Part shown: positions 5,521 through 26,919 of the stretch, one piece after another
How positions within the stretch are numbered: the stretch's first letter is position 1
Layout of the letters: each line of letters begins with the position of its first letter
Origin: a virus
DNA length: 64,000 nucleotides
Direction: 5' to 3' (one strand)
Virus record (IMG/VR): IMGVR_UViG_3300029286_000024
Span: 1-64,000 of that record
Notes under the pieces: model-generated
Database searches by the model: none
What the model saw: only the letters and a program-made list of their open reading frames with translations
What the model was told of the DNA's origin: nothing
Program-made: the position numbers and the translations under genes

Positions 5521-5931
5521 TTAGACTGCTTTTGCCATCTCAGGCCTTTCAAGTTCATTTCCACGTTCTACCATTTCTTCACGGATATTTTTAACATAGG
5601 GCAATTCCAAGAGATTCATAAGTTCAATTCTGTCTGTTTGTGGCATATGTTTTTTAAAATCGTGCCAAGAAATCCATGTTTGAAAAAATTCTTCTTTGGT
5701 AGGTAGTCTTCCCAAAATGTCGGTAAGACCACGGATGATATCGCTAAGATACCTGAAATCTCTTATTTCTTCTGGTGACGATACCCCGACAGAGTTAATC
5801 CCTACCATTTTCCCTAATTCCCTATGATAAACCATCCACTGATGAAAATCGGTTTTCTTAATTACCTGAGACGGAGACATTGCTAGCCGGTAAAACCTCT
5901 CTGCCACCTTATAAAGATAATACCAGTTCAT
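5521..5931 (-). CDS. Hypothetical protein with N-terminal NWY..YKVA / FYRLA tag
   Basis: 136-aa ORF; AAGG-N19-GAA motif directly upstream (5941-5966). Confidence 0.7.
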   Translation of the reverse strand: MNWYYLYKVAERFYRLAMSPSQVIKKTDFHQWMVYHRELGKMVGINSVGVSSPEEIRDFRYLSDIIRGLTDILGRLPTKEEFFQTWISWHDFKKHMPQTDRIELMNLLELPYVKNIREEMVERGNELERPEMAKAV

Positions 5932-5940
5932 TTACTATTT

Positions 5941-6004
5941 TTCTCAAATAATCGCTTAAATACCTTTGCCACGTTTAGAAGGGAAAAGCAGTAAACAAAG
6001 AGAA
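5941..6004. promoter_or_regulatory. Divergent pair of AAGG-N19-GAA motifs
   Basis: Minus copy 5941-5966 and plus copy 5979-6004, both with exact 19-nt spacing. Confidence 0.7.
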
Positions 6005-6030
6005 ATATTTACATTAAGAAGGAGAAAAAT

Positions 6031-6384
6031 ATGAAGATATATAAAGTAACCAATCAGTTAGGAGAATTTGAAGATGAAGGCAGAGACCCACTTGAAAACA
6101 CAGAAGAACTTCAGCAATTTGAGGGTCAAAAAGAATTAAGCGACATAGAAAGAGGGAAAAGTGGAAATACGCATACTAGTGAAGTTATTTCGGATATAAC
6201 CCCATCTTTTCAAGAAAGATTGGGAACTTATTGGATTGCTGACGGATCTGTGGGGTGGTTTAGATATAAGGATGGTGTAGTATATGAGATTCAAGTAAAA
6301 CCAATAGGATTAGGTAATTACGAAAATCTATATTTACAATCCAAGCAGGGGCAACAGGAACCGCCAGAAGAATTACCTGTATAA
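6031..6384 (+). CDS. Hypothetical protein, MKIYKVT tag
   Basis: 117-aa ORF with strong SD AAGGAG. Confidence 0.75.
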   Translation: MKIYKVTNQLGEFEDEGRDPLENTEELQQFEGQKELSDIERGKSGNTHTSEVISDITPSFQERLGTYWIADGSVGWFRYKDGVVYEIQVKPIGLGNYENLYLQSKQGQQEPPEELPV

Positions 6385-6396
6385 TTTTCGATTTTT

Positions 6397-9126
6397 ATGC
6401 AATTTTATCGAACATCTGAGGTTGATAAGGCAAAAACATTGCGGGACTATACTGCCTGTGTAACAAACTTCTACGCCGAAAATAAAGCTGAATGTATTGA
6501 GGAATTTTTAAATAAAATTCAAACGGAAGAGGGAATTAGTGCTTTAGCTGAATCCTCTCACGAAAACCTTAGTGCCGTCTTTTTCGTAATTAGCGATATA
6601 CTTAGAAAATATCTCTATAATGCAAGGGGATTGGTCAGCGAAAATGATGTCCGAAAAATAATTAACTACTCTATTTTTACAGGTGATCTTTTTAGGTTTG
6701 CTAACAGAGACTATCTTATCAAATTATTTTGGTCATTTGATTTGCCAAAAGACGTAGCCTATAAACTATATGAACTTATGACCAAAGAAAAGAAGCTAAC
6801 ACATTCTAGTTATTGCGAGTACATTCTTACCAATTCTAGTTTTCCACAAGAATTATTAATTGACGCTTTGAAATATGGCAAAGCTCCAATTGCCGGATGG
6901 GCCTCTGAAAACGAAAATATGCCTCTTGATTCTCTTTTAAAATGGAAAATTGATACTGGACAAATAGCAACCGAAGATCCTACTAAACACATAATAGAAG
7001 AAATGCCAGAACCCAAAGAAGATGAAGATTTTAGAAAATTGAAAGAACTGGTAGGAAAAAATTTCAAAATGTATAGAGCGGCGAAAGAAAAATTCTATTC
7101 AATAAACCTTGCGCAAGGTACTAAAGATCCCCAAATACTAACAGAAATATTGAGAAACAGAAATGTAAATTCACGTTCGTATGCTTCTCTATACGACAAT
7201 TATGTTGCTCAAATTGCAGCAAGAAACCCAAATTGTCCACCTGAAATATTAGAAGAAATATTGAGAAAAGGGGGGAATGATTTAGTTTCTCAGTTCGCAG
7301 CAAAAAATCCAAATTGCCCTATAGACGCTAGGATACAATGGATGAGAGATACCGGACAAATAGCAACCGAAGATCCCACTAAACACAAAATAGAAATGGT
7401 TAATAAGCCAGAAACAAACACCGACTTAAACGAATTAAGAAATCTTATTGGTCGCAATTCGTCTCCAATAAAGAAAACTTCCAAATTAACACATCCAAAC
7501 ATACTGGGAGAAGACTGTTTGAACGATCCAAAATGTATTAATGATTTTCTGGAAATACTGAAAGACCCGGTAAAAACAAAAAAACTAGAAGATTCTATTC
7601 CGAAAGAATGGGGACACTCATATAATGTAAGACTATTTTTGGGAGACATATGCCGAAAACCCAATATTATAAACGATAATACCGTAAGAACCATAATTGA
7701 TTTTGCTATAAGAACCGGAGATTTATTTCTTTATAGTTCTATGTCTAAAGTCTCTTACCTAAGATATCTTTTTATAGGTGTCCCAAATATGCCAAGAGAT
7801 GTATTTTTTAAACTTTATAAATTGATAGAGCAAAGAAAAATAGTAAGTAGCGACCACATAGCTGACATTCTTACCAATCCGTCCTGCCCAATAGAAATTT
7901 TAGAAAAAGTCCTGTTTTCGTATGATTTCCCAGAGTATTATGGCGAATGGGCAAGTGAAAATCCAAGCCTTCCGGTTGAACTAAAAGTAAAATTTATGCG
8001 TGAAAAAGGTTTGATAGCGACGGAAAATCCATTGCGCCACAAAATAGAAGAAATGCCAGAACCCAAAGAAGACGAAGATTTTAGAAAATTGAAAGAACTG
8101 GTAGGAAAAAATTTCAAAATGTATAGGGTTGCAGAAGATTGGCATACGGAAGAAGAAGAAGCAAAATACACTAAAGATCCCAAAATATTAGTAGACATTT
8201 TGAGAAGAGGAATAGACGATTTTGTTTCTCAACGTGCGGCACAAAATATAAATTGTCCACCTGAAATGTTAATGGAGATTTTGAGAAGGGGAAAAAATGA
8301 TAATGTTTCTGGAAATGCAGCAAAAAATCCAAATTGTCCTATAGAAATGTTAGTAGAAGTATTAAGGAGAGGGAAAAACGATTATGTTTCTCACTCTGCG
8401 GCGCAAAATCCAAATTGTCCACCAGAAATGTTAGTAGAAGTATTAAGGAGAGGAAACGATGATTGGATGTCTGACTGTATATCAAAAAACCCAAATTGCC
8501 CTATAGATGTAAAAATACAGTGGATGAAAGATAGTGGAAAAATAGCAACCGAAGATCCAAATAAACACAAAATAGAAGAAGTCCCAGAACAAAAAGATGA
8601 AGATTTAATTCGATTAAAAGAACTGGTAGGAAGAAATTTCAAAATGTATAGAGTGGCCTATATAGATGACAAGAGTATTCCTCGTAGCGTAATTTTGAAA
8701 ATGGTTTCATTGGCAGAATCCGAAAATTGTCCACCTGAAACCTTGATAAAAATATTGAAGCAAATATTAAATAGACCCAAAAACGATGAATTTTCTTGGT
8801 GGGCAGCAGCAAACCCCAATTGCCCACCTGAATATTTAGAAAGAATATTGAATAGAGGAGTATGGAATAGCGTCATTACTTGGAGAGCAGCGTCTAATCC
8901 AAATTGCCCCCCAGAAGCTCTAGCAAAGATTCTAAGTCGTGGAGAGGGAAATATTGTTTCTCAATATGCGGCAAAAAATCCAAATTGCCCTGTAGACGCT
9001 AAAATACAGTGGATGAGAGATCGAGGCGATATAGAAATCGAAGATCCATCCAAACACATCATAGAAAAAATACCAGAACAAAAAGATGATAGTTTCGAAC
9101 AGTTGCAAGGACTTATTAAGGAGTAA
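6397..9126 (+). CDS. Modular LRV/HEAT-like repeat protein (AAxNPNCPxExL repeats), five modules
   Basis: 909 aa; repeated AAKNPNCPPEML units. Each module ends in W..D.G.IATEDP.KH.IE, and three internal modules restart with FKMYR[AV]A. Confidence 0.8.
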   Translation: MQFYRTSEVDKAKTLRDYTACVTNFYAENKAECIEEFLNKIQTEEGISALAESSHENLSAVFFVISDILRKYLYNARGLVSENDVRKIINYSIFTGDLFRFANRDYLIKLFWSFDLPKDVAYKLYELMTKEKKLTHSSYCEYILTNSSFPQELLIDALKYGKAPIAGWASENENMPLDSLLKWKIDTGQIATEDPTKHIIEEMPEPKEDEDFRKLKELVGKNFKMYRAAKEKFYSINLAQGTKDPQILTEILRNRNVNSRSYASLYDNYVAQIAARNPNCPPEILEEILRKGGNDLVSQFAAKNPNCPIDARIQWMRDTGQIATEDPTKHKIEMVNKPETNTDLNELRNLIGRNSSPIKKTSKLTHPNILGEDCLNDPKCINDFLEILKDPVKTKKLEDSIPKEWGHSYNVRLFLGDICRKPNIINDNTVRTIIDFAIRTGDLFLYSSMSKVSYLRYLFIGVPNMPRDVFFKLYKLIEQRKIVSSDHIADILTNPSCPIEILEKVLFSYDFPEYYGEWASENPSLPVELKVKFMREKGLIATENPLRHKIEEMPEPKEDEDFRKLKELVGKNFKMYRVAEDWHTEEEEAKYTKDPKILVDILRRGIDDFVSQRAAQNINCPPEMLMEILRRGKNDNVSGNAAKNPNCPIEMLVEVLRRGKNDYVSHSAAQNPNCPPEMLVEVLRRGNDDWMSDCISKNPNCPIDVKIQWMKDSGKIATEDPNKHKIEEVPEQKDEDLIRLKELVGRNFKMYRVAYIDDKSIPRSVILKMVSLAESENCPPETLIKILKQILNRPKNDEFSWWAAANPNCPPEYLERILNRGVWNSVITWRAASNPNCPPEALAKILSRGEGNIVSQYAAKNPNCPVDAKIQWMRDRGDIEIEDPSKHIIEKIPEQKDDSFEQLQGLIKE

Positions 9127-9127
9127 T

Positions 9128-9514
9128 ATGCCAGAATCAAAAATGATGGAAGCCTTTATCCAACAAACTTATGGCTCAATAGAAAAAATGAAAGAAGCCA
9201 TGACCAAAGCCGACCTTAATCCAAGAAGTAACGAACACCTAGAAAAAGAATTAAACGATAAATTACAAAAAGAAATAATATCAACACATTTTATGAACAC
9301 CCCAATTAAAGAATCTATGCCCATTCCATCTAAACTTAAAGATTCAGAATTAAACCAGAAAACAGAGGGCCATCCCAATTTTAAAAATTACGACCATTCA
9401 CTTGAAACCGAAAGAAAAATAGGGCTTATCTATTTAGCAGAACCAACAAAAGAAGATTCCATGTCTGAAGATTTGGAAGTTGGTAGCGTAAGCGAAATGA
9501 TGGGCGAAAAATGA
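9128..9514 (+). CDS. Hypothetical protein
   Basis: Start corrected to ATG 9128 after SD AAGGAG (MPESKMM…). Confidence 0.65.
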   Translation: MPESKMMEAFIQQTYGSIEKMKEAMTKADLNPRSNEHLEKELNDKLQKEIISTHFMNTPIKESMPIPSKLKDSELNQKTEGHPNFKNYDHSLETERKIGLIYLAEPTKEDSMSEDLEVGSVSEMMGEK

Positions 9515-9981
9515 AAATATATAGAATAGCCGTTAAACCTAGATATTATGGAACCCCCGATCTTAACGATCCTGTTCCCCACGATTTTGAGCCTTCCCAT
9601 AGCTACGAAGAAGAATTACGCCCCAAACGTAAAATGATGAAAGCCTTTGAACAAGCCGCCCAAGATATTGCTGCTAAACATATGGGAGAGTTTCAAGGAG
9701 ATTTTACCAGATTCAGAATAGCGTTTGTCAAAGAGGCTAATGGAGGATTAGCTCAATATGCTGGCGGAACATATAATATGCCCGTTATCCTAATCAATCT
9801 CCGTCTTTGTGCCGAAACACAAAAAGAACTTAAAGATGACTTTTCTATGTATCAAGTCGCTATAACAACCTTAATGCATGAATTGAGACACGCCCACCAA
9901 GAACAAGAAGGCATGAACGAAAGTATGGAATCACAAGAGCTTGAAGATGATGCGGAATCTTTCGGAATGAGATTCATCTAA
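9511..9981 (+). CDS. HEXXH zincin-like metallopeptidase domain protein, MKIYRIA tag
   Basis: LMHELRHAHQ…E motif; ATGA overlap with the upstream gene. Confidence 0.7.
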   Translation: MKIYRIAVKPRYYGTPDLNDPVPHDFEPSHSYEEELRPKRKMMKAFEQAAQDIAAKHMGEFQGDFTRFRIAFVKEANGGLAQYAGGTYNMPVILINLRLCAETQKELKDDFSMYQVAITTLMHELRHAHQEQEGMNESMESQELEDDAESFGMRFI

Positions 9982-9997
9982 CTGTATAATATCTTCG

Positions 9998-10567
9998 ATG
10001 AAAATGAAATATCAAATTATTCTTTCCGATCCCCCATGGAAACAGAAAAAAGGCGGGAAAAGAAATTGCCGCCCCCATCAAGGATTTACTCTCGACTATC
10101 CAACCTTGTCTGTTGATAACATCTTCGATATCCATGACCAAATAGTTAATAATTGCTGCGAACCTAAACATACCTTCTTTATATGGACAATAGATAAGTT
10201 TTTACACGAATGCGAAGAAAAAATGAATGAAAGAAAATATAAGCTTCATGCCAGACTTATTTGGGATAAGGAAAATGGAGTTGCCCCTGCTTTTACTATC
10301 CGCTATTCCCACGAATACCTTTTATGGTTCTATAAACCTTCCATGATCCCTATCGCTAAAAATATGAGAGGAAAATATACAACCGTTCTTAGGGAAAAAT
10401 CAACGTACCATAGCCATAAGCCAGAAATAGCCCATCAATTTATAGAAGATCTATACCCCGATACAAATAAGCTTGAATTATTTGCCAGACAAAAAAGAAC
10501 AGGATGGGATGTATGGGGAAAAGGTGTCAAAGGCAAAGACATTAGAGGAGTATGGATTGAAAGCTAA
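9998..10567 (+). CDS. MT-A70 family N6-adenine methyltransferase
   Basis: IILSDPPW catalytic motif, IWDK, HSHKPE, KLELFARQ…GWDVWG. Confidence 0.9.
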   Translation: MKMKYQIILSDPPWKQKKGGKRNCRPHQGFTLDYPTLSVDNIFDIHDQIVNNCCEPKHTFFIWTIDKFLHECEEKMNERKYKLHARLIWDKENGVAPAFTIRYSHEYLLWFYKPSMIPIAKNMRGKYTTVLREKSTYHSHKPEIAHQFIEDLYPDTNKLELFARQKRTGWDVWGKGVKGKDIRGVWIES

Positions 10568-11156
10568 ACTTTATTATTTTTTTGGTGCCATGGGATCAAC
10601 CAAAACCGCCCAACTCTTAACCACCAACTTTAACTATACCGAAAAGGGACTGTCAACCTTGCTCATTACCAGCGGAAAAGATAACCGATCTGGAATAGGC
10701 TTTATTACTTCCAGAATAGGATTAACCGCCCAAGCCAATATTGTTGTTTATCCCGATACTAACCTTTTTACCGCCATTGAAAACGAAACTAAAATAAGTA
10801 AAATAAATGTAATCCTAGTTGATGAAATTCAGTTTTTTACCCCACAACAAATAGATCAACTAGGCGATGTTGTGGATTATCTAGAAATTTCAGTCCTTTG
10901 CTATGGATTAAAAACTGATTTTCAGTCCCACTTTTTTCCGGCAACCCAACGACTTATGGAAATAGCCGATAGCATTACCGAAATTAAAACCATATGCCAT
11001 TGTGGAAAGAAAGCTACCTATAATGCTAGGGTTCACAACGGCAAAATAGTAACAGAGGGCCAACAGATTCTAACCGGCGGAAATGAAACCTATGTCGCCG
11101 TTTGTAGAAGATGCTGGAAACAAGGACTCATAAAACAATTACAAAAACCAGAATAA
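10557..11156 (+). CDS. tdk: Thymidine kinase (TK1-type)
   Basis: KLYYFFGAMGSTKT P-loop, ILVDEIQF, YGLKTDF, IKTICHCG…YVAVCRRC Zn site; likely TTG start at 10557 after AGGAG. Confidence 0.93.
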   Translation: MKAKLYYFFGAMGSTKTAQLLTTNFNYTEKGLSTLLITSGKDNRSGIGFITSRIGLTAQANIVVYPDTNLFTAIENETKISKINVILVDEIQFFTPQQIDQLGDVVDYLEISVLCYGLKTDFQSHFFPATQRLMEIADSITEIKTICHCGKKATYNARVHNGKIVTEGQQILTGGNETYVAVCRRCWKQGLIKQLQKPE

Positions 11157-11654
11157 TTTTTTCCAATCAAAACTAGATGGTTTTTCCACTATCTTTTCAT
11201 CGGGTTTAAGTTTTGGATTCTCAAATTGAACCCTTACAAAATGATCGCATTCATACATGGTCGGAACCTCTAAATCCCCCTGCATCTTTATTAATTTTTC
11301 AGGAGGAAGCTTCGTATTAGTCTTATTCCTCTCTAAACATACCGCCAAAGGAGTATCAATATAAACGATTCTTGTTTCTGTTGCATATTCTTTACCAATA
11401 TCCAAGAACAACTTACGGATATAACGAGTATGATTAATCCCATCTAAAATGACATTAACCCCTTGACTCAATAGAATACGAATACAGGAATCCGTAATCG
11501 TCCATATAACAGGATTTGCCGCATCCGAATATTGATTTCCAAGAATATTCTCACGTATCCAATCATTACTAATAACAATATCATTCTTATCCTTGTTATT
11601 AATAATCCATGTGCTTTTACCACTTCTCGGCATTCCTACTACTAGTGTAATCAT
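11139..11654 (-). CDS. AAA_33 / polynucleotide-kinase-like P-loop kinase
   Basis: VGMPRSGKSTW, ISNDWIRE, VILDGIN, CLERN. Confidence 0.82.
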   Translation of the reverse strand: MITLVVGMPRSGKSTWIINNKDKNDIVISNDWIRENILGNQYSDAANPVIWTITDSCIRILLSQGVNVILDGINHTRYIRKLFLDIGKEYATETRIVYIDTPLAVCLERNKTNTKLPPEKLIKMQGDLEVPTMYECDHFVRVQFENPKLKPDEKIVEKPSSFDWKKLFWFL

Positions 11655-12469
11655 TTGCCCTCCTCAATAGCTTTTTTGTAAAGCTCCTCAACGTATTTCA
11701 TATGTTTTGGCTCTTGAACTCTTCCCCCTGTATTTAGTCGAAGGAAATAAAGATATTTGTCGGACAGTTTTACCCGCTCTTCTTTGAGATCAGCAATGGA
11801 AATAGGATGACGCTCAAACTGGTCCTGATCCCTATAAGTAAGGTCTTTGAAATATTTCCCGTTAAACTTGAATCGGCTTTCATAAAACTCAGTCAAGGCA
11901 ATAATACGCTGCTTCCCATCCAATACTTCGTAAGAGGGAGAATGATCCTTGAATGGCAAAGCAACAAATACGAACTTGCCAATATCCACATGCATATAGA
12001 TAGAAGAAATAAGTTTGGTCTTATCGTCCATAGTCCATATGTTGCCTCTCTGATAATCGGGACTCATATCTAAGCCGAAATGATAAACCCTCGTAAAAAT
12101 AGAACTCAAGTCCATCTGAGAGAAGCTAAGACGAAGCGTATCTTCTTGAGTATAATTTTCCATAGAATTCAATTCTTCAAGAGTATGATATGGACAAATA
12201 TCAAACCAAGCCACATACATATCTCTTTCACTATCAATTATTTTCCCGTAATGGTTGTCTTTACAATTCTGATGCAGCTTATAGATTTTTCCACCGTCTA
12301 TAACCTCCGTAATAACTGATTTAGCAATGTTACCCATCTGAACCCTCTGCCCAACTTCATAACGAACATAGTTGGGAGGTTCAGGAATATAATGTTCTTC
12401 TCTCAATTCACGAAGTTGTCTTTTTAATCCATCTGCTTCACGATCTTCTATCACTTTATTTCTTTTCAT
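11651..12469 (-). CDS. DUF262 (ParB/GmrS N-terminal-like) domain protein
   Basis: PDYQRGNIW…LISSI…IG…EVLDGKQRIIAL…FLRLNTGG. Confidence 0.8.
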   Translation of the reverse strand: MKRNKVIEDREADGLKRQLRELREEHYIPEPPNYVRYEVGQRVQMGNIAKSVITEVIDGGKIYKLHQNCKDNHYGKIIDSERDMYVAWFDICPYHTLEELNSMENYTQEDTLRLSFSQMDLSSIFTRVYHFGLDMSPDYQRGNIWTMDDKTKLISSIYMHVDIGKFVFVALPFKDHSPSYEVLDGKQRIIALTEFYESRFKFNGKYFKDLTYRDQDQFERHPISIADLKEERVKLSDKYLYFLRLNTGGRVQEPKHMKYVEELYKKAIEEGK

Positions 12470-12478
12470 TTGCCCCTT

Positions 12479-13893: not shown

Positions 13894-13996
13894 TTTAACA
13901 TCATAACGGATTTAAAGTAAAAATCAAGGAAAACTTCGAGAAGGAATAAAATATGTTTTATGAGAAATACTAATCAAATTGCAAAAGGAGACCCAA

Positions 13997-14194
13997 ATGA
14001 AGATCAAAATCAGCAAAACTCAGTGGGAAGAAATGGGTAAGTTGGCCGGTTGGTTGTCTGAAGCCAAGAAAAAGGGGAAGAAAGTAAATCCTTGGGCCGT
14101 TTGCCACACGACGGTTGATAAAGATAAAGACCCTGCCAAATACGAAAGATGTGTCATGGATGTTAAAAAGAAACATCCTATCAAAAAAGATTAA
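13997..14194 (+). CDS. Small basic protein with MKIKISKTQWEEMGKLAGW tag and VNPWAVC…KYERCV motif
   Basis: SD AAGGAG before ATG 13997; AAGG-N19-GAA at 13941-13966. Confidence 0.72.
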   Translation: MKIKISKTQWEEMGKLAGWLSEAKKKGKKVNPWAVCHTTVDKDKDPAKYERCVMDVKKKHPIKKD

Positions 14195-14216
14195 CAACCT
14201 AAATTTTGCGAAGATA

Positions 14217-15338: not shown

Positions 15339-17220
15339 TTACACAAACCGCATATCTCCTGTGTATGATCCGCCTAGATGCGCATAATAGGACCCCATTG
15401 GATCTGTTCCAAGCCTTTCCCAGCAATCAGTTGGAGCAACATGGCCCTTTACCGTATATAGTGAACATATATATTTGTTGTCAGAATCAGCGTACCACAC
15501 CCTGAAATCAGTTCCCGTTTGCCACCAACACGGGTATCCGTTGTAATCAGCATCAACATTATAGGTGCCAAGCGGAGTAGGTGGGTTTGGCATCGTCATG
15601 TACTGCACCATGGCCTTAATTATTGAACTTTCAGAGCTTGGCGAACTATCAGAACTTAAAGAAGAACTAGAACTACTAGAACTACTAGAACTTCTAATTT
15701 CTGTTGAACTACTAGAACTTGAAGAACTTAAAGAACTGCTACTAGAACTTGAAGAACTCAAAGACGAACTCGAAGAACTACTTTCAGAACTTAAAGAACT
15801 GCTACTAGAAACTCAAAGACGAACTCGAAGAACTACTTTCAGAACTTAAAGAAGAACTAGAACTACTAGAGCTTCTTAATTCTGTTGAACTACTAGAACT
15901 TTCAGAACTCAAAGAAGAACTAGAAGAACTGCTTTCAGAACTCAAAGAAGAACTAGAAGAACTGCTTTCGCTACTAAAAGAAGAACTTGAAGAACTGGAA
16001 GAAGAACTTGAACTAGACGAACTTCTAATTTCTGTTGAGCTACTAGAACTTGAAGAACTCAAAGAAGAACTACTTGAACTACTGGAGCTACTTAAAGACG
16101 AACTACTAGAACTTGAAGAACTCAAAGAAGAACTGGAAGAACTACTTGAAGAACTCAAAGAAGAACTGCTTGAGCTGGAAGAACTGGAACTGCTGCATTC
16201 TCCAACAGCAATAACCCCAGCTTGGTTTTCATAGGTTCCATCCGGACAACCACCATCAATAATCTTATTAGAAACCCAATTAATTTCGGCAGTTGGATAA
16301 ACTAAAGAAATAGCCCAATAATCAGCCCCTACAGTACTCAACCACAAATTATAAGTGCCATTATTAAATACCGCCTTGTCATTGTAATACGCCCCTGTCC
16401 AAGCATAAGTCCCATTAATGTTGTTTGTTGAATAACCCGTAGCGCAATAATATGGCTCACATCCCTGCAAACTACTGCTGCTCGAACTGCTTTCAGAACT
16501 TAAACTGCTGGAACTGCTTGAACTGGAAGAACTACTTCTAATTTCAGATGAACTGCTTGAGCTGGAAGAACTGCTAGAACTTTCAGAACTTGAAGAACTG
16601 GAAGAAGAACTAGATTCGCTAGAACTCGAAGAACTGCTCGAACTTTCAGAACTCGAAGAACTACTCGAAGAACTAGATTCACTTGAACTACTAGAGCTAC
16701 TAGAACTTTCAGAACTCGAAGAACTGGAAGAAGAACTTGATTCGCTAGAACCCGAAGAACTCGAAGAACTACTTGAACTACTGGATGAACTTACCGAACT
16801 ACTACTAGATGAACTTACCGAACTACTACTGGATGAACTTACCGAAGAACTAGAACTACTACTGGACGAAGAAGAATCTATCGAACTACTAGAACTATCA
16901 TCATTGTATACCGCATCTCCCGTTCCCGTTTCACCCGATGTAATGTCTTCCAAACTTTTCCAACTTGTCGTGGTTCCAAAAAGATCATTACCCAACTTCA
17001 AATAAAGCGGCTTGTTAATCGGAACACTTCCATTGGTAATATATCGACGAATGATGTAATAAGCTGCCTCATTACAATACGGCATATGGCTTAAAAAATA
17101 AACTAGATAATATTCACTGTCTTTCTGGTAAGCAGGATAACCACTAATAAATCCTATTTCATAATAAGTCCCGTTTACACCCGTATTCTCAAATGAGTTG
17201 ATATATACTTTGTTTGCCAT
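15339..17220 (-). CDS. Poly-Ser-linked multidomain protein (three NGTY…YNG-type domains), split by a frameshift at about 15810
   Basis: ORFs 15805-17220 and 15339-15761 are continuous in composition. The second copy of a ~63-nt repeat lacks 8 nt (cttgaaga) at about 15810. Confidence 0.75.
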
Positions 17221-17293: not shown

Positions 17294-17329
17294 TTCTACG
17301 CTCAAAGGGTTTCTTCCTTCAATAAAGAA
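17294..17329. promoter_or_regulatory. Overlapping divergent AAGG-N18/19-GAA motifs
   Basis: Minus copy 17294-17319 (N19) and plus copy 17305-17329 (N18). Confidence 0.62.
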
Positions 17330-17338
17330 AAATATATT

Positions 17339-17644
17339 GTGCAAATTTATAGAATAGCTATGGCAAATAAATGGATTCCGTCAATCACTAACCCGGAAAA
17401 CCAATTGCGATACATGTTTAATTGTACCCAAATTAACCAACATAGCTGGCAAATGGAGTTACTCGAATGTATGGATAATAACAACAATTGGCAACCTAAT
17501 CAAATAACACAACGATATCTGGAAAAACAAGTCGGAGCCTTAGAAGACGACTATGCCCTTTCCTTTAAATATTGCATCTATAAAGGAAAACCTTTTGTCG
17601 CTGCCTATTTTAGCAGTATTCATTATGTTTTTGAAGTATCATGA
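17339..17644 (+). CDS. Hypothetical protein, MQIYRIA tag
   Basis: 101 aa, GTG start. Confidence 0.7.
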   Translation: MQIYRIAMANKWIPSITNPENQLRYMFNCTQINQHSWQMELLECMDNNNNWQPNQITQRYLEKQVGALEDDYALSFKYCIYKGKPFVAAYFSSIHYVFEVS

Positions 17645-18168
17645 AAATATACCGACTCTCTAAAAACCCAATAATTTCCATAAACGTCGAAACTACTAAC
17701 TCCCACCATAACCAAACTGACTATCTCATGACCGCTAACCTAAATAACCTTGTCGTAGCCACTCTGGAATTCTCCGTCTATCAAGATGAACCCTATGTCA
17801 ATATGATCAAAGTAGAAGAAAAATACCAGAGACAAGGCATTGCAACACAACTACTTAGGAAGCTTCAAGAAATGTATCCGGAAACCGAAATCCACATGGG
17901 AATGTCCTCTCAAGAAGGATCTGAATTATTAAAATCTATTCCTACGAAATTTATACCCAATGAACGCCATATAGAATTAACCAAGAAAAGAAACAACCTG
18001 AAAGAAAATTTAGATAAACTGCAACATTTCCTAGATTCCGCAAATCCAAAAACACAAAGAGAAGAAATGTTATCCCAAGGAGAAAAGTGGAATCAAATCC
18101 ATGACCAACTCTATGAAATCGAAAAAGAATTAGAGAATATGAAAAGCGGAAAAACAATTATTCTTTAG
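17641..18168 (+). CDS. GNAT-family acetyltransferase, MKIYRLS tag
   Basis: VNMIKVEEKYQRQGIATQLL (motif A) followed by S.EG..L. Confidence 0.8.
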   Translation: MKIYRLSKNPIISINVETTNSHHNQTDYLMTANLNNLVVATLEFSVYQDEPYVNMIKVEEKYQRQGIATQLLRKLQEMYPETEIHMGMSSQEGSELLKSIPTKFIPNERHIELTKKRNNLKENLDKLQHFLDSANPKTQREEMLSQGEKWNQIHDQLYEIEKELENMKSGKTIIL

Positions 18169-19172: not shown

Positions 19173-19173
19173 T

Positions 19174-20217: not shown

Positions 20218-20224
20218 AAACTCC

Positions 20225-20647
20225 TTATTTCTTTGCGAAAGATAATATCCATGTTAATTGATCATCCATGTTCTCTATTGCTTCCACAGCCGTTGCCCCC
20301 TCACACATCGTCAACATTTCATTCGTATCTGCTTTAAAAATATTTAAAGTAAAAAATCCCTCATTCGATCCTTCAAAAACACGAATCATTAACCCCGATA
20401 CTAAAGCCTTACTGCCCGTTTTAGTATCCATCAAAATATGATCCACCACAATTTTTCCAGCATTATCAACGGAAATTATCTTGTCATTATTTTTCCGCAA
20501 TACCTCTGCAATTTGACGAGTGTAATCTTCATTCAACATCCAATCCTCACCCGCAGTCTTTATCCATCCCGCCTGCTTTCCCATTGCTTCCCATTGAGAT
20601 TTGTTAATGGTTATTTTCATCTTCTCCTTTTTATCTTCTATGGTCAT
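20225..20647 (-). CDS. Hypothetical protein with MKITINKSQWEAMGKQAGW tag (true start probably 20620)
   Basis: SD AAGGAG precedes ATG 20620; AAGG-N18-GAA at 20706-20730(-). Confidence 0.7.
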   Translation of the reverse strand: MTIEDKKEKMKITINKSQWEAMGKQAGWIKTAGEDWMLNEDYTRQIAEVLRKNNDKIISVDNAGKIVVDHILMDTKTGSKALVSGLMIRVFEGSNEGFFTLNIFKADTNEMLTMCEGATAVEAIENMDDQLTWILSFAKK

Positions 20648-20751
20648 TTAATTTTTGCCTTATTTGTTTACTATGCCCTCACTTATATCTATTTATTATT
20701 TATTATTCATTTTTATTTCCCGTTTCCCTTTTTCTTTCGTATAATGTTAAC

Positions 20752-21261
20752 ATGCATCACTTAACCCTGAAACAGATTCAACGATTTCTTAAAAAAATCA
20801 ACTACCACCAATCCATCAAAATTCATTACCTTAAAGAATCTAAAAAAAACAAAAAGAAAATTAACTGGCTCTGCGCACAAGCTGCCTTCTCACGCTACTT
20901 GGAAAAAAATTCAAAAAATATTATGATCGCTTCCCAAATCGAAATCTCTAAACAATGGAAAAAAAGACTCTCCAATAACCAATTTAAAGCCGTTCTGTTA
21001 CATGAAATAGGCCACCTCTATACTGGCTTCATAATCAAAAAAAACCAAATCATAGAAAAATCTAAATCCTTATGCGAATTTGAAGCACAAAACTGGGCTC
21101 TTAAACGCTCCCAACAACTCCACTTTAAAAATATCCGTAGAGAAATTTTAACCCTCTATTACGAATGGTCACAGTTTAATTGGAAATCCCCAGAAAGAAT
21201 CTATCTCAAAGCTTATAAAATGGCTGTCAAAAAAGGCATCCTAAAGAAAATTCTCCAATAG
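20752..21261 (+). CDS. HEXXH metallopeptidase-like basic protein
   Basis: AVLLHEIGH…EFEAQNWA; GTATAAT-N6-ATG upstream. Confidence 0.68.
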   Translation: MHHLTLKQIQRFLKKINYHQSIKIHYLKESKKNKKKINWLCAQAAFSRYLEKNSKNIMIASQIEISKQWKKRLSNNQFKAVLLHEIGHLYTGFIIKKNQIIEKSKSLCEFEAQNWALKRSQQLHFKNIRREILTLYYEWSQFNWKSPERIYLKAYKMAVKKGILKKILQ

Positions 21262-21293
21262 GAATTTAAACCCCTAATTGCGAATTACTATAT

Positions 21294-22901
21294 GTGAAGA
21301 TTTATAGAATAGCCGTAATTATAAAACAAGACCCCAAACTATTAGAGGCGGCACGTCTTGTCGTTGAAGAAAATAAAATGATTGGAGAAATGGCTGAATC
21401 ATTTCATTTAAATCCACAAGACCTCTCCGATGCAGTAGCCGATCTTAGAAAAACCAAATCCCTGCCTGTTAATTTAATTGTAGAACTTTATGAAAAATAT
21501 GGCCGTATTAAAGCTGTCGAAAAGAACTTGCGAAAATATAACCTTAATATTTCAGAAGATGATATAGTATGGGTCATCAGAAGAAATGTCCCCACCGCAA
21601 AACTGAATGCAACTAAAAGCGAAATTGAAAAAATATTGTCCCTGAAAGATCAAGGTAAAACCGGACAACAAATATCCAGTAAAGTGTGGATATCTGAACA
21701 GGGTGTCTATTCCCTTATTAGAAAACTAAGACCAGAAACCGTAAATAGCCGAACAGTAGACAATAAACTTGCCCAAACTATTTTAAATTCCTACATCGAC
21801 CTAACTACTAATCATAATAAAACCTTCCAAGAAGCCGTAAATGAGATATCTTTTAATTTAGGCATTGATATCAAAAAAGTAACAAATGCCCTATATGTAC
21901 GGGGAATTAAAGCTGGACGAGAACCGGGCAAAGACTTTACCACAGAAGAAAAAGAAGCTATCCTTAATGAACTGAAAAACGGTAAAAGTTTTCTCGAAGT
22001 GTCTAAGCAATTTGAAAGATCTCAAAGCGCAATAAGACACATGGTTGAAAGAGAATATCCCACCCTCTATCAAAGATTTAAAAAAATACAATACGGCGTA
22101 GATAATATCCCCATCGATATTAGAAACTTTGTCGTTTACCTAGCCAAACAAAATAAAAGCGCAAAAGAAATACAAGAAGCTCTCAAAAATAGCACCTTCA
22201 ATGCCAACCTCACTACTGGCATGATATATAAAATAGAGAAAAGATGGCTCAATAGATCCCTTGTGCAGTTTGTGGTGGACGAAATTACAGAAGCAAAATC
22301 TAATGACCTCATCCTAAAAGATTATGCCCAAGAATATAATGATACCACTACCCTTACTCCATCTATCATCAATAGAATAAGAACCCAATACTTCCCCAAT
22401 GATACCGCCACTATTAATACTCAACCTACTCAACCCACTCAACCTATCAATGACTGGACAAATCCTAACTGGGTAGATCCTAAAAAGAAAAATAATCCAC
22501 CCACCACTCTAGGCCTGTTTACACCAGAACAACTTAATGAGATGAAGAAAAATAAAGTTGCCTCTTTCAATTGGTATCAATTATATAAATTAGCTAAAGA
22601 TTATAACGACTACCTAGATATCGGACACCCACTCAGTAATGAATTTTATGGTAAAATTGCTCTCTGGGCATTTATAGACGGCAAATTACAAGTCCACGTA
22701 ACCGTATCACCAGATGATAACCATGAAGAACTATGGGGAAATTACTTGGAAGATAATAACTATTTCGGAAGATTTGAATATAAATCAAAAATAGCCAGCA
22801 TCGCAATACCCAGTAACCACCAAGGAAAACCTGTGCCTAATATCATCACAAGAGCCCTGTATGATAAATTCGGACATAATATAAAAATAATGGAGTTCTA
22901 A
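21294..22901 (+). CDS. Multi-HTH-like protein with MKIYRIA tag and a separate C-terminal domain after an internal FNWYQLYKLA
   Basis: Repeated short helical HTH-like units (GKTGQQISSKVWISEQGVYSLI; GKSFLEVSKQFERSQSAIRHMV); TAGG-N19-GAA upstream (21259-21284). Confidence 0.65.
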   Translation: MKIYRIAVIIKQDPKLLEAARLVVEENKMIGEMAESFHLNPQDLSDAVADLRKTKSLPVNLIVELYEKYGRIKAVEKNLRKYNLNISEDDIVWVIRRNVPTAKLNATKSEIEKILSLKDQGKTGQQISSKVWISEQGVYSLIRKLRPETVNSRTVDNKLAQTILNSYIDLTTNHNKTFQEAVNEISFNLGIDIKKVTNALYVRGIKAGREPGKDFTTEEKEAILNELKNGKSFLEVSKQFERSQSAIRHMVEREYPTLYQRFKKIQYGVDNIPIDIRNFVVYLAKQNKSAKEIQEALKNSTFNANLTTGMIYKIEKRWLNRSLVQFVVDEITEAKSNDLILKDYAQEYNDTTTLTPSIINRIRTQYFPNDTATINTQPTQPTQPINDWTNPNWVDPKKKNNPPTTLGLFTPEQLNEMKKNKVASFNWYQLYKLAKDYNDYLDIGHPLSNEFYGKIALWAFIDGKLQVHVTVSPDDNHEELWGNYLEDNNYFGRFEYKSKIASIAIPSNHQGKPVPNIITRALYDKFGHNIKIMEF

Positions 22902-24286
22902 TGAAAATCTACCACCTAGCACAAATCAAAGGCCTCAATATCCATAAAGATAAATCCCAATCTAAAAAAGAACATAAACAACAACATAGAGATCTTAAAA
23001 ATTATGTCAAAATTATCCCCGGCCTCGTTGAAAAAATCTACCAAAATGGAAAAATTATCTATGAACAACTCAAAACCCAAATCCCCGGAAGAAATACCGA
23101 CTCCATCCTCAGACAAAGACGTAAACAATGGATGCTCAGAACTAACGAAATAGAAGGATTACAAGAATTCTATTCCTATGTCGCCGGAGAAGATAATAAA
23201 ACAAAAGTTCTAAGACTCATCTGCGATATGGTCAGCGATCAAATCCTGCTCAGAGAGGGTAAAAAAAGACTCGTCAACTGGGCCACTAATTTCTTCAAAA
23301 ATACAGAAACCGAAGAAAAACAAGCCGATTTCCAAGATTCAGGCTATGACCAATCCCTCCTCGACCTCCTCCCACCACAAGTCTATTTCGACCTAGGACC
23401 CAATAGAGAATTACTCACCATTAAAGAAAGCTTCGGTAGAGAACAGAAAAACTGGGAAATTATGTCCAAAAAAATAGCCTATATCGCCCAACACTTCAAT
23501 GCCATGGTCCATGATATCAAAAATGACCTCAACTCAGGCGACGAAACTACTAAATTACTCGCACTGATGATGGCTATTACTATCGAAACCGGACTCAGAC
23601 CCGGTGCCGTAGGAAATGCCGCCAATGTCATCGACCCCATTACTAAAGAAAAAATAGAAATCGATACCTTCGGAGTCACTACCCTCCAAGTCCAACATGT
23701 CAAAATTATCAGAGATGGCTTCGCTGAACTCCAATTCCCCGGTAAAAAAGGAACCGAACAAATTGCCCACCTAACCGATTCCGATATCGTCAACGCCCTA
23801 CAACAAATTCTCTCCACCACTTCCCTTCAAGGAGATACTACCATGCTCTTTGTCACTAAATCCGGCCTCCATGTCGATGATACCTTAATGCGTAACTATG
23901 TCCAAAATAAATGGAGAGATATTTCCCCTACCGATTTTAGAAAATTCGTCGCTACTAAAAACTTCTATAACTATGTCAAACAAGCTACCCTTACCTTTCG
24001 ATCTACCCTCCTCGAAGAATTAACCAAAGATCAGGAAATCGTAAAAGAAACCATCGTCAATGGCATTATTAAAATTATCTCCGACGCTATAGAATCTACT
24101 AAACAAATCCTCAGCCATAAAGAAGGCCACGATGCTTGGCAATCCTATGTCTCACCTAAAATTATCCTCGCCTACCTCTCCAATGGCGGATTAGATGATA
24201 CTCTGGAAGATATCTTAATCGATAATAAAAATGTCCGATTCAGTTTCGATTTCAAGGACTTTATAAAATTTGCGGATACCTTATGA
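22901..24286 (+). CDS. DNA topoisomerase IB (poxvirus/bacterial type), MKIYHLA tag
   Basis: Catalytic pentad recognisable: ETGLRPG (R), FGVTTL, FPGKKG (K), TDFRKF (R), LSH (H), QSYVSP (Y). Confidence 0.85.
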   Translation: MKIYHLAQIKGLNIHKDKSQSKKEHKQQHRDLKNYVKIIPGLVEKIYQNGKIIYEQLKTQIPGRNTDSILRQRRKQWMLRTNEIEGLQEFYSYVAGEDNKTKVLRLICDMVSDQILLREGKKRLVNWATNFFKNTETEEKQADFQDSGYDQSLLDLLPPQVYFDLGPNRELLTIKESFGREQKNWEIMSKKIAYIAQHFNAMVHDIKNDLNSGDETTKLLALMMAITIETGLRPGAVGNAANVIDPITKEKIEIDTFGVTTLQVQHVKIIRDGFAELQFPGKKGTEQIAHLTDSDIVNALQQILSTTSLQGDTTMLFVTKSGLHVDDTLMRNYVQNKWRDISPTDFRKFVATKNFYNYVKQATLTFRSTLLEELTKDQEIVKETIVNGIIKIISDAIESTKQILSHKEGHDAWQSYVSPKIILAYLSNGGLDDTLEDILIDNKNVRFSFDFKDFIKFADTL

Positions 24287-24447
24287 AAATTTACAGAATA
24301 AATAAAAATATCAAGAAAGCAGAATTACCGCAACCGACTAACCCCACTAACCCTACTAACCCTACCTATACCGTTAGATCTATGCTCCAAGATCTCTCAA
24401 AATGGGATGAGTTTTTGAAAAATATCAATACTAATGAAAATATATAG
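24283..24447 (+). CDS. Small tagged protein (54 aa; MKIYRINKNIKKAELPQPTNPTNPTNPT…)
   Basis: Translated by hand; fills the gap between topo IB and the next gene, overlapping both. Confidence 0.6.
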   Translation: MKIYRINKNIKKAELPQPTNPTNPTNPTYTVRSMLQDLSKWDEFLKNINTNENI

Positions 24448-25036
24448 ATTATCACAAAATACTACCTCTAATCAATTTAAAGAATGGTTCGGAGATTGGA
24501 CAAACGAAGATGCCTATTCGTCTAAAAACCCAAAACCCATACCCTCTATGGCAATCAACGAAGATCAAACACCCAAAGTTATGTATCATGGAACTTCAAA
24601 AGATTTTAACGATTTTGAAGTAGGGAAAGAAGGTTATAATAGCAATGTTTTTGGGTCATGGAAAACTACCCGTAATGCAATATTCTTTACCCCCAATCCA
24701 AATGATGCCAATACCTTTACGTCTAGCGGAGGAAATACTACTGGCGGAAATATTAAACCCGTATACCTGAATGTCCGCTCACCCCTCGATTTTCGTAACG
24801 GAGTGGATAACCTTACACTTGATGAATTTGAAAAAGAAGGCATAAATCCAAAATGGCTTATCAATTTTACATGGGAACACTTAGATGACGAAGATGGAAA
24901 ACTTTTTGTTGATGCCGCACGTCGCTTAGGATATGATGGAATTATCTTTACCGATGAGAATCCCGAAACAAGAGAAAATATGGAAACGTGGGCAGTATTT
25001 AATCCATCCCAAATACGCTCTGTTTATCAAAAATGA
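24434..25036 (+). CDS. ADP-ribosyltransferase-like (ART-PolyVal-type) protein, MKIYRLS tag
   Basis: FKEWFGDW…PKVMYHGT…IFFT…PVYLNVRSP…GYDGII…ETWAVFNPSQIRS, the pattern of the ART domain of phage polyvalent proteins. Confidence 0.78.
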   Translation: MKIYRLSQNTTSNQFKEWFGDWTNEDAYSSKNPKPIPSMAINEDQTPKVMYHGTSKDFNDFEVGKEGYNSNVFGSWKTTRNAIFFTPNPNDANTFTSSGGNTTGGNIKPVYLNVRSPLDFRNGVDNLTLDEFEKEGINPKWLINFTWEHLDDEDGKLFVDAARRLGYDGIIFTDENPETRENMETWAVFNPSQIRSVYQK

Positions 25037-25572
25037 AAATATATAGACTATCACAAGAAATATTCCGTGGCGACTCCTCCCCCATCCATATCAATGACTA
25101 TAACCCCGAATATGGCGTCAAAGAACTCGGAAAAGAATTAGGCTCCGCAGCAGCTTGGGGTCCCGGTATCTATTTCGTCACACAAAAAGATATCGCCCAG
25201 ATGTACGGCCCCCATATTACTAAAAAATTTCTCAGTAATGCACATATCCTCACAAAACAAAACCCCAAATTTAATTCACAACAAATAAACAATATGCTCC
25301 AAAACATCGATAAAGAAAAAATGGAAATAGCCATATCTAACTGGAACGAAAATTATAACCTAGGAAAAAAAATATTAATACAATCCATAGTCAATGCCGA
25401 TAACCCACTAGATCAATTAATGAATATATGGTCAGAAGTCTTCCTACACCAAAATGCCAATGCCTTTATTGAACTTATGATTAAAAACGGGATCGATGGA
25501 ATCTCTATAACCAAAGATGACGCTACCTATTATGTCATCTATAATAAAGAAATACTAAATGAAAATATATAG
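25033..25572 (+). CDS. Second ART-like protein, MKIYRLS tag
   Basis: IFRGD…WGPGIYFVT…AQMYG…GIDGI…YVIYN. Confidence 0.62.
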   Translation: MKIYRLSQEIFRGDSSPIHINDYNPEYGVKELGKELGSAAAWGPGIYFVTQKDIAQMYGPHITKKFLSNAHILTKQNPKFNSQQINNMLQNIDKEKMEIAISNWNENYNLGKKILIQSIVNADNPLDQLMNIWSEVFLHQNANAFIELMIKNGIDGISITKDDATYYVIYNKEILNENI

Positions 25573-26179
25573 ACTATCTACCACTACCTTTACCCCGCAA
25601 TTTACCCCTGCAAAAAATACCGCCCAAGATCTAGCCCTGTCTAACCCACAAGAAGCTATGAACGCTAAAGGCTTTAATGTCAGAAAAATGCTCGCTAACC
25701 GCATCCTTAATAAAACTAATGCCGGAAATCTCTCCAATCCCAATTACCAACAAATAGTCGATTTCTACTGCCAAAGAGAAAACTTGCCACCACTCCAAAT
25801 TACATGGTTCGGCAATATCAAAGATCCCAAAATATCAGGACAATCTATCGTGGGACAATTTGGCATCTATACCGATAAATCCCCCTTCCTTAAGCTGAAT
25901 AAAGCCTTCCTCGATATGCCACAAACTATGATCCTTACCATACGCCATGAAATAGAACATGCCATAGATACCCTGAAACATAATTACCGCACTACCCCTT
26001 CCAACCAACACCATAAAAATTACTCACGCTTCGATAGACAATATGCCCATAAAGAAATACTCCAAGATGCTATCGAAAACCAAAAACCCGTATCTGCCCT
26101 AGCTATAGAACATTTTAATATCCCCATCCCCGAAAATTATACCCGAAATGGAGATTATTATGTCCCAATACCACAATAG
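25559..26179 (+). CDS. HEXXH metallopeptidase-like protein, MKIYRLS tag
   Basis: LTIRHEIEHAID. Confidence 0.65.
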   Translation: MKIYRLSTTTFTPQFTPAKNTAQDLALSNPQEAMNAKGFNVRKMLANRILNKTNAGNLSNPNYQQIVDFYCQRENLPPLQITWFGNIKDPKISGQSIVGQFGIYTDKSPFLKLNKAFLDMPQTMILTIRHEIEHAIDTLKHNYRTTPSNQHHKNYSRFDRQYAHKEILQDAIENQKPVSALAIEHFNIPIPENYTRNGDYYVPIPQ

Positions 26180-26208
26180 CTCTATTTAATGCTGTAATTA
26201 ATGCACAA

Positions 26209-26919
26209 TCAATTAGAATGCCTTAACCTAGGAATAATCCATTTAGCTTCTTTATACCAATTATTTGATTTTGCTGCTATTCCTTTACCTTTTAATTGAT
26301 TTAAGGTCTCTTTCCCACCTTCTATGAATAAAGCCGCTAAATCCCCACGCTGATGAACAACATTAAGCATGGCATCAACCCAAAATAATTGCTGCTCTGG
26401 AGTTTGCGATCTCATAAGATTTGAAGCAAATTCTTCCAACTTAGGCAACCCGTAATCACTTATAGGAGTCCCATACGGAGTTTCAAGATAAGACCAATTA
26501 AAATCATTCGAACGATCTTTAGAAGTCGGTATCTTATATCCCGTAATATCCTCTATATCTGACCATCCACCTTGACTATGACCCGATAAATCATTCGATG
26601 CCCTTAATCTAGCCAGTAACTCTATCATTTTATCCGCTATTTCTTGCATCCCTTTATAATCATGTACCACCCCATTCCTACTATAATCATTCCATATCTT
26701 GATTAATCTGGCCTTGGGAATTACTGTCCACTTCATCATGGTGTTCTTTTTACGCTTCTTATCATAAAAATCTCCAAGAATATCCCGCTTCTGCTCATCG
26801 GTTAAATTAAATAAGTTCTCTATCTTTTCTTCATAGAGACGAGATTCAGGATCAATAAGATCTTTTTCCATGTCAATAGAATTTTCCAACGATTCATTTG
26901 ATAATCGATATATCTTCAT
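26209..26919 (-). CDS. Hypothetical protein, MKIYRLS tag
   Basis: 236 aa; SDYGL…LNVVHQRGDLAALFIEGG; C-terminal NNWYKEA. Confidence 0.72.
   Translation of the reverse strand: MKIYRLSNESLENSIDMEKDLIDPESRLYEEKIENLFNLTDEQKRDILGDFYDKKRKKNTMMKWTVIPKARLIKIWNDYSRNGVVHDYKGMQEIADKMIELLARLRASNDLSGHSQGGWSDIEDITGYKIPTSKDRSNDFNWSYLETPYGTPISDYGLPKLEEFASNLMRSQTPEQQLFWVDAMLNVVHQRGDLAALFIEGGKETLNQLKGKGIAAKSNNWYKEAKWIIPRLRHSN

Follow-up and report, generated by a model that had tools for sequence, protein, structure and literature searches.

In phage P1, anti-restriction cargo (the Dar proteins) is loaded into heads by means of N-terminal information and helper proteins, and we know of no short motif common to many genes in that system. 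In encapsulins a short disordered peptide at one terminus of unrelated cargo, usually the C-terminus, docks inside an HK97-fold shell. The internal proteins of phage T4 carry an N-terminal capsid-targeting sequence (CTS), of which the first ten residues are enough to direct foreign proteins into the heads; residues 4 (Tyr) and 7 count in targeting, 8 and 10 in cleavage, as given in passages of PMC9026906 and PMC3012670. Polyvalent proteins, large multidomain products of other phages, were argued in passages of PMC5512222 to be delivered together with DNA (Iyer et al. 2017). Here we describe a seven-residue peptide, M-K-I-Y-R-[LI]-[AS], hereafter the tag, that begins a series of otherwise unrelated proteins encoded by the virus record IMGVR_UViG_3300029286_000024 (82,012 bp, CheckV completeness 43%; G000 in our numbering). 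The window, that is the whole stretch of DNA that was analysed, is the first 64 kb of this record. On balance we think it likely, if not strongly so, that the tag is a lineage-specific head-loading (capsid-targeting) signal, a dialect of an MNWYK-type leader that would act as an analogue of the T4 CTS with a different sequence.

The strict form of the tag, M-[KQ]-[IF]-Y-[RKH]-[ILVT]-[ASTN] at residues 1-7, was found in 12 of the 183 open reading frames (ORFs) of the 82-kb contig, using our own ORF call. Based on the internal frequency of the motif, whose six-residue core was seen twice in 22,348 internal positions, 0.016 tagged starts would be expected (Poisson P about 8e-31). Furthermore, the tagged ORFs are clustered, with 12 of 30 lying within 5521-27288 and 0 of 153 elsewhere (Fisher P 4e-11). 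Strict starts are confined to 6031-26919, and a thirteenth gene, 5931 (-), has the variant composite MNWYYLYKVAERFYRLA. Tag-like matches at 79734 and 81674 were rejected as gene starts, as they are internal repeats of a repeat protein. A preliminary description of this DNA, made from the sequence alone, had listed the tagged starts, and every one of them was recovered; a whole-contig motif search of the kind that it had proposed gave the enrichment reported above.

Among the window tags Tyr-4 is invariant and there is no conservation past residue 7. The codons vary at every tag position, with AAA and AAG for Lys, ATA, ATT and ATC for Ile, TAT and TAC for Tyr, AGA and CGA for Arg, CTC, CTA and TTA for Leu, TCT and TCA for Ser, and GCC, GCT and GCA for Ala, and the 45 nt upstream of the tagged genes have nothing in common. 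Since the codons vary and the upstream DNA is unrelated, conservation and selection act at the level of the peptide and not of a DNA cassette, as the preliminary description had argued from codon use. Polar or linker residues follow the seven-residue tag (sequences read directly), and it does not have the make-up of a Sec or Tat signal peptide, in which a basic n-region leads into a hydrophobic h-region of about 10-15 residues. The tagged genes are as follows.

5521-5931, minus strand: 136-aa protein, composite tag MNWYYLYKVAERFYRLA (nt 5881-5928), body without Pfam family.
6031-6384, plus strand: 117-aa protein, tag MKIYKVT, no Pfam family.
6397-9126, plus strand: 909-aa LRV-repeat protein (Pfam LRV), tag MQFYRTS.
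9511-9981, plus strand: 156-aa protein, tag MKIYRIA, HELRH zincin-like motif, weak match to DUF6782 (E 2e-4, below the curated cut-off).
17339-17644, plus strand: 101-aa protein, GTG start, tag (M)QIYRIA, no family.
17641-18168, plus strand: 175-aa GNAT acetyltransferase, tag MKIYRLS (Acetyltransf_1, 2.9e-6, above the cut-off).
21294-22901, plus strand: 535-aa protein, GTG start, tag (M)KIYRIA, weak helix-turn-helix (HTH) repeats.
22901-24286, plus strand: 461-aa topoisomerase IB-like protein, tag MKIYHLA (Topoisom_I, 4.7e-11).
24283-24447, plus strand: 54-aa protein, tag MKIYRIN followed by a PTNPTNPTNPT linker.
24434-25036, plus strand: 200-aa ART-PolyVal ADP-ribosyltransferase (ART), tag MKIYRLS (E 1.9e-20).
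25033-25572, plus strand: 179-aa protein, tag MKIYRLS, weak ART-PolyVal similarity (E 0.005, below the cut-off).
25559-26179, plus strand: 206-aa protein, tag MKIYRLS followed by a Thr/Pro-rich linker, HEIEH motif, no Pfam family.
26209-26919, minus strand: 236-aa protein, tag MKIYRLS, all-alpha domain ending NVVHQRGDLAALFIEGG, no Pfam family.

The GNAT, the topoisomerase IB and the repeat protein proposed in the preliminary description were each recognised by Pfam. Of its two ART-like bodies, that at 24434 is firm and that at 25033 weak; of its two HEXXH peptidases, that at 9511 has only the weak DUF6782 match and that at 25559 the bare motif; and the HTH bodies came down to weak matches at 21294.

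The tag is kept in homologues of these proteins while the residues after it are variable. All 24 members of the ART family (self included, 55-83% identity) are tagged, 20 with a MKIY/MRIY/MKIF-type and 4 with a MNWY-type start, and among 48 homologues of the 236-aa protein 26 are tagged by regular expression (MKIY[RK][IL][AS] or M[NS]WYK[KQ][AS]), with 4-5 more by eye. Five other tag-bearing records were compared (G001-G005, of which G003 is complete with terminal repeats). The relative G001, which has about ten genes in common with the present contig, shows 8-9 tagged starts that mix both forms on one contig: MKIYRIA, MKIYHIAQ (twice), MNNWYKIYRMA, MINWYKLSQ, MKSWYKIAQ, MKNWYKTAQ, MKSWYKLAQ and MTTNWYKLAQ. 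Among the proteins tagged in G001 are a phosphoesterase of the 2H/Acb1-like type, one that resembles Tpt1 and one that is rubrerythrin/EncFtn-like. The 236-aa family led to 80 metagenome loci (684,721 bases), of which 23 hold 81 tagged gene starts in all, with 11 in 9.6 kb at the densest, and here too the KIYR and NWYK dialects stand side by side. The tag falls within the MNWYK-type leader class, [NKS]-[WI]-Y-[KR]-x-[AS], which heads many unrelated proteins and is swapped between orthologues. As orthologues swap MKIYR and MNWYK, and single contigs mix both, the KIYR form is, judged by sequence, a dialect of the wider MNWYK-x-[AS]-Q tag of uncultured huge phages. A DNA pattern for MNWYK[LIFM]AQ gave 4 matches in 596 Gb of prokaryote genomes, which is about the chance level, and just one of the four headed an ORF, on a 3.5-kb contig of a metagenome-assembled genome; the tag appears to be restricted to viruses. 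We did not find it described in print, and main-text passages of the polyvalent-protein paper (PMC5512222), its supplement aside, are silent on it.

In AlphaFold2 models the tag lies outside confident folded cores, with pLDDT below 50 at residues 1-6 of the ART (model mean 76.9) and at residues 1-8 of the 236-aa protein (mean 85.4). Flexible linkers stand behind the tag in several proteins, such as PTNPTNPTNPT in the 24283 product and a proline run in G004. As modelled, the tag is a free, disordered handle. In this phage lineage all five natural ART fusions have a tag-like motif at the junction in which the Met is replaced, the joints being FKIYRIA, TKIYRIA, IKIYRIA, KIWKIA and TWYKRA, and in the family of the 236-aa protein 10-11 of the 15 members of at least 257 aa carry the tag past the conserved domain. 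The window has such copies as well. The 909-aa protein contains FKMYRAA (7063-7083) and FKMYRVA (8113-8133 and 8638-8658), each heading a repeated module, the 236-aa protein has a second tag-like NNWYKEAKW near its C-terminus (nt 26239-26265), and in the 535-aa protein an internal FNWYQLYKLA (nt 22566-22595) opens a C-terminal module of about 110 aa; the 136-aa protein has just its first 13 residues in common with this last tag. This C-terminal module is found again in another phage (34% identity over 102 aa, E 4e-16), where it follows an internal tag and the domain upstream is a different one. Since tags are kept at fusion joints and the module stands behind different domains, the unit that is shuffled, split and fused is tag plus body, the tag outlasting the loss of its Met. 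The junction copies and the homologues thus uphold the modular, portable peptide of the preliminary description.

The domain of the 236-aa protein, for which no PDB fold match to the body was found at E <= 0.001, occurs in 64 viral loci and, besides the KIYR/NWYK-tagged form, in three other guises. The first, seen at 7 loci, is a protein of 192 aa with the start MKTFKQFILES, whose gene in G006 and G007 adjoins a second gene starting MKTFKQFMLES. The window protein and its orthologue in G007 (CheckV 100%) are 40% identical over 176 aa (E 1e-42), and the alignment begins past both leaders. In the T4 record IPI starts MKTFKEFTST while IPII and IPIII start MKTYQEFIAE, and in sequence the MKTFKQFILE leader of these orthologues is almost identical to the T4 IPI/IPIII CTS. 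T4-type gp23 and gp21 are encoded by G007, G008, G009 and G010. Of the 45 records with the domain or the tag, gp21 was found in 13, none of which has a MNWYK start; neither gp21 nor gp23 was found in G001-G005, searched for both families, nor in the 43% fragment G000, searched for Peptidase_S77 only, the same searches being positive in G007-G010. The T4 analogy of the preliminary description is strengthened by these orthologues, which carry a near-T4 leader in gp23/gp21 phages.

In the second guise (about 20 loci) the domain stands behind leaders of the ...IIKEE..FLKE type, and in the third (20 loci) within ORFs of 846-5548 aa. Giant proteins of 3341 and 4132 aa join it with 2H, NUDIX, ART-PolyVal and PARP/Tpt1-like domains, and in 11 of 12 other viral loci the ORF that holds a relative of ART-PolyVal is 629-3776 aa long. 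Classic polyvalent proteins (P0028-P0056) gave a single, chance-like match to the strict tag. By these sequence comparisons, domains that are tagged singly here and in G001 elsewhere either belong to one polyvalent protein or stand alone behind a T4-type CTS. The tagged bodies match the domain set found in the giant ORFs, and the earlier phrase of a polyvalent protein split into separate genes is a fair description.

Two observations belong beside these relatives. In T4-like jumbo phages with gp21 and gp23 (e.g. G009, G010, G036, G042 and G044) this cargo domain follows a leader of the form M..[LI]..II[KR]EE...[FY]L[KR]E, and II[KR]EE leaders were seen at loci L113, L125, L128, L130 and L138-L149; this leader may be a further CTS dialect, its I-K-E/L-K-E triplets fitting the T4 protease site. 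P0029, a 1254-aa ART-PolyVal and GNAT protein, is on a 130-kb contig labelled by NCBI as moss (Sphagnum), which is probably a phage or bacterial contig in the assembly.

A likeness to a head protein comes from two of the tag-bearing records. G003 (10 MNWYK starts) has a gene for a giant protein of 1834 aa and G002 (8) one for a giant protein of 2306 aa, and residues 75-187 of that in G003 match the head-maturation-protease family phrog_18299 (3.4e-8). The giant protein of G003 starts MAIYKTAT and that of G002 MAFYKTAT. In the protease family (2558 matches at E <= 0.001) 95 of 150 representatives start M-(x)-hydrophobic-x-K-x-A, in the same register as M-K-I-Y-R-L-S. Among the 45 records this type of head protease was strongly matched only in G003 and G002, and a search of the present contig for the phrog_18299 type did not find it. 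Hint/intein-like insertions were seen in the G002 protease fusion (58732-65652, minus strand) and in a 571-aa peptidase-like protein of G001 (locus L001, 13158-14873, minus strand).

In the head-loading reading, each effector module (ADP-ribosyltransferase, GNAT, zincin, topoisomerase IB, repeat proteins or 'HQRGDL' domain) would start with an unstructured handle, which would dock on a component of the procapsid interior during head assembly. Candidate partners are the scaffold or core, the portal, and the giant protease-fusion protein with its tag-like N-terminus, and the reader of the tag presumably differs from that of T4. The docked module would be enclosed in the head and would later exit with the DNA. 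We infer this docking, packaging and injection, and any cleavage, from the properties set out above. A wider proposal, which we hold only tentatively, is that a common effector arsenal may enter the heads of tailed phages by at least three interchangeable routes, namely a giant polyvalent protein, genes with a T4-type CTS and KIYR/NWYK-tagged genes, each tag being a code matched to the head assembly of its lineage and here mimicking the N-terminus of the protease fusion.

The location of the block bears on timing and, in that the block falls outside the array of strong host-type early promoters, counts in favour of head loading. The strict early-promoter pattern was found 15 times, all at 31-69 kb and on the minus strand, and as it is absent from 1-30 kb the tagged genes are probably outside the immediate-early programme. 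Sigma-70-like sites are not enriched in 5-25 kb (67, against 63.6 +/- 9.5 in shuffles), and inspection by eye upstream of the tagged operons gave no convincing late or common promoter motif. The intergenic regions 26920-27081 and 27289-27420, upstream of the genes at 26919 and 27288, have in common a repeated element some 50 nt long, TTTTTCTTATAAAAAATA.G.ACTCCCATAAAAAAA...ACAC.GG.AAA, as well as a TTTCG...AAGGATTACAAAT motif; these shared elements are a possible non-early promoter.

Several points weigh against a head-loading role. Internal and near-C-terminal copies are left unexplained by a purely N-terminal signal and demand an extra assumption, such as processing, position-independence or recent fusion. 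Beyond M-K-x-Y the tag shares no residues with the T4 CTS, from which it diverges past residue 4; the T4 pattern MKT[YF][QK]EF...[IL]xE includes a gp21 site, and the tag has no I/L-x-E. Trimming after the tag is unsupported by the sequences, because nothing is conserved past residue 7. Shared descent confounds the association of leader type with head type, since any trait specific to a lineage would show such a correlation. The likeness to the protease starts is a loose three-residue pattern, with Tyr at the invariant place of the tag in only 13 of 95. In addition, two effector-like genes lack the tag: a small zincin-like gene (20752-21261) and a minus-strand ArdC-N and MPTase-PolyVal gene (28164-29087; E 1.9e-35 and 2.6e-36). 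The latter adjoins the early-promoter array and is conserved in G001 (44% identity), and its product is apparently a polyvalent-type anti-restriction effector that relies on early expression instead of a tag. The preliminary description had taken the untagged neighbours for housekeeping enzymes, which holds for TK, MT-A70 and the metallophosphoesterase and not for these two genes; an AAA_33 kinase and a GmrSD_N/DUF262 protein complete the untagged genes noted in the block.

Relatives and head genes were looked for as well, and that no cultured relative and no head gene on the fragment came up counts against the head-loading reading. From 50,697 phage records tblastn retrieved no more than 6 distant ART matches, in which the tag was not covered, and the 236-aa protein, the 206-aa protein and P0101 had no matches in cultured phages. 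Bacillus phage G was rejected as a model, having no MNWYK pattern and a tag-like start in 2 of 692 ORFs, as expected by chance; 13 of its 692 ORFs start MKRL, which is perhaps another recurrent N-terminus or a paralogue family. No head gene was recognised on the 82-kb fragment, 43% complete, and the reader of the tag was therefore not seen. ORF starts over the rest of G001 were inspected for head genes and none was seen, and the HK97-type capsid family (PF05065) was not found in the tag-bearing records, an uninformative result. For the head module of the KIYR lineage, an exact-codon pattern search led to just 4 small loci, a first metagenome scan to nothing and a second to numerous tagged loci, on short contigs. 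An all-against-all BLAST of G000 and G001-G005, examined for a receptor gene common to tag carriers, gave about 16 shared genes and no obvious candidate.

The alternative that survives best, though we regard it as rather unlikely, is that the tag docks on some other common partner, such as a host hub protein, a phage chaperone or adaptor, the replication compartment or another tagged protein, and that tagged proteins are gathered or regulated together in the infected cell. A short, disordered and portable peptide that is tolerated at N-termini, at junctions and near C-termini behaves like a short linear motif, and the presence of KIYR and NWYK on single contigs makes one tolerant reader plausible. 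What such docking leaves unexplained is the near-T4 leader on the orthologues of T4-like phages, the occurrence of the same domains inside polyvalent proteins, and the likeness to the N-terminus of a head protease.

It was also considered that the tag might be an N-terminal degron of the ClpX N-motif-1 type, by which dangerous enzymes would be kept short-lived. Several of the tagged enzymes could be toxic, and the E. coli examples tabulated in PMC9775585 (ATGKI, STAKL, TIKV, TNTAKI and SQNTLKV) end in a small or hydrophobic, a basic and a hydrophobic residue, as do Y-R-L and Y-K-I. The relative G001 encodes ClpP (E 8.6e-45), yet ClpP had to be rejected as a constant companion of the tag, as it was found in just one of the five tag-bearing records and not in the complete G003. 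Moreover, internal copies would need cleavage to act as N-degrons, the invariant Tyr and strict Ala/Ser at position 7 are foreign to the listed degrons, and the exchange with a T4-type CTS would go unexplained, making this role improbable.

Marginally less credible again is a role mainly in translation, whereby the tag would provide an A/U-rich unstructured initiation region, or favourable first codons or residues, in genes without a Shine-Dalgarno sequence. The commonest tag DNA, ATGAAAATATATAGA, is indeed very A/T-rich, and a Shine-Dalgarno core of at least 4 nt is rarer in tagged genes (2 of 13, that at 6031 being one of the two and clear) than at valid untagged starts of the block (9 of 18); the Fisher P of 0.06 was computed with 10 of 19 untagged genes and includes row 10545, which is not a start codon. 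The preliminary description had named an mRNA-level initiation sequence as one of the findings that would overturn its proposal. Such a sequence is disfavoured by amino acids that are kept despite synonymous and two-step codon changes (AGA/CGA, CTC/TTA), by an NWYK dialect built of quite different bases, by conservation that reaches residue 7, and by tags kept inside ORFs at module junctions, where initiation is irrelevant. That cassette shuffling left the tag as a passive scar, a functionless recombination joint at gene starts, is hardly credible even though tagged modules are clearly shuffled and fused, for recombination joints are conserved as DNA, whereas here the peptide is kept while the DNA varies and the flanks are unrelated, and it is kept across homologues at 55-83% identity and in distantly related phages.

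The tagged block at 5.5-27 kb is placed between genes for Ser-rich proteins (3-2804 and 15805-17220), which are probably surface-located, and the early-promoter array. Very long poly-Ser tracts occur in three minus-strand products, those of 3-2804, 15339-15761 and 15805-17220, which are possibly glycosylated surface or fibre proteins; the last of the three has an N-terminal domain that recurs in G001 (L001 16704-17120). A second N-terminal motif, MKI[TK]I[NS]K[ST]QWE[AE]MGK.AGW, was observed on four otherwise different window proteins, at 13997 (+), 19172 (-), 20620 (-) and 27288 (-), and on three proteins of G001 (L001 8872-9126, 10863-11348 and 16276-16695). Its genes have a strong Shine-Dalgarno sequence, unlike the KIYR genes, and the two gene sets are interspersed. 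Next to the block, the product of 3984-5519 on the plus strand (511 aa) is hydrophobic at its N-terminus, includes a stretch rich in Pro and strongly matches DUF4159 (2e-64), a family associated with bacteria and unusual in phage. Farther off, ARAGORN predicted a tRNA with a CUA anticodon ('tRNA-Pyl') at 56124-56199 on the minus strand, a candidate amber suppressor. TAG is the stop of 25 of the 119 called ORFs, and thus there is no evident general recoding.

If head loading is confirmed, the tag would mark dozens of proteins per genome as injected cargo without cultivation, many of them anti-defence or host-takeover enzymes and many without a known family. Capsid targeting of the T4 kind, known for a few proteins of a single phage group, would then extend to a large class of uncultured huge phages, and polyvalent proteins and tagged single-domain genes would be two solutions of one delivery problem. 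Should the three-route proposal also hold, sequence alone could tell which proteins are injected by uncultured huge phages. The tag would further be a compact engineering handle for loading chosen proteins into such heads. Even with a partner other than the capsid, it would be a real, virus-restricted sorting or docking code of seven residues.

Compared with known systems, the tag differs from encapsulin cargo-loading peptides in its sequence and its N-terminal place, and no encapsulin shell gene was seen in our records, although one tagged protein of G001 is rubrerythrin/EncFtn-like. With ClpX N-motif-1 degrons (Flynn et al. 2003, as cited in passages of PMC9775585) it has in common a hydrophobic-basic-hydrophobic triplet within the first seven residues, and its pattern is compatible with theirs (polar-T/hydrophobic-hydrophobic-basic-hydrophobic near a free N-terminus), whereas the examples listed there have no invariant Tyr or position-7 Ala/Ser and tags also occur internally. 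Polyvalent proteins (Iyer, Burroughs, Anand, de Souza and Aravind 2017; passages of PMC5512222) draw on the same domain set, with ART-PolyVal, GNAT, zincin-like peptidases, 2H phosphoesterase and the domain of the 236-aa protein. They hold 2 to 15 domains per polypeptide, whereas here there is mostly one recognisable domain per tagged gene, each gene being separate with its own tag, and only two-domain fusions occur, in relatives. The T4 CTS of IPI, IPII, IPIII and Alt (Mullaney and Black 1996, as cited in passages of PMC9026906 and PMC3012670) is likewise a short N-terminal peptide on unrelated, fast-evolving anti-defence proteins, and the tag heads bodies that are unrelated by Pfam. Both start M-K-x-[YF], with Tyr at residue 4 being a main targeting determinant in T4, according to those passages, and invariant here, and one cargo family, that of the 236-aa protein, bears either leader according to the phage. 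The present system differs in a much higher density of tagged genes (12-13 in 21 kb, and up to 11 in 9.6 kb in the metagenome loci) and in the KIYR/NWYK tags that persist at internal junctions. By analogy, then, the tag would work like the T4 CTS without being a member of it, on a domain set that is polyvalent in an architecture that is not.

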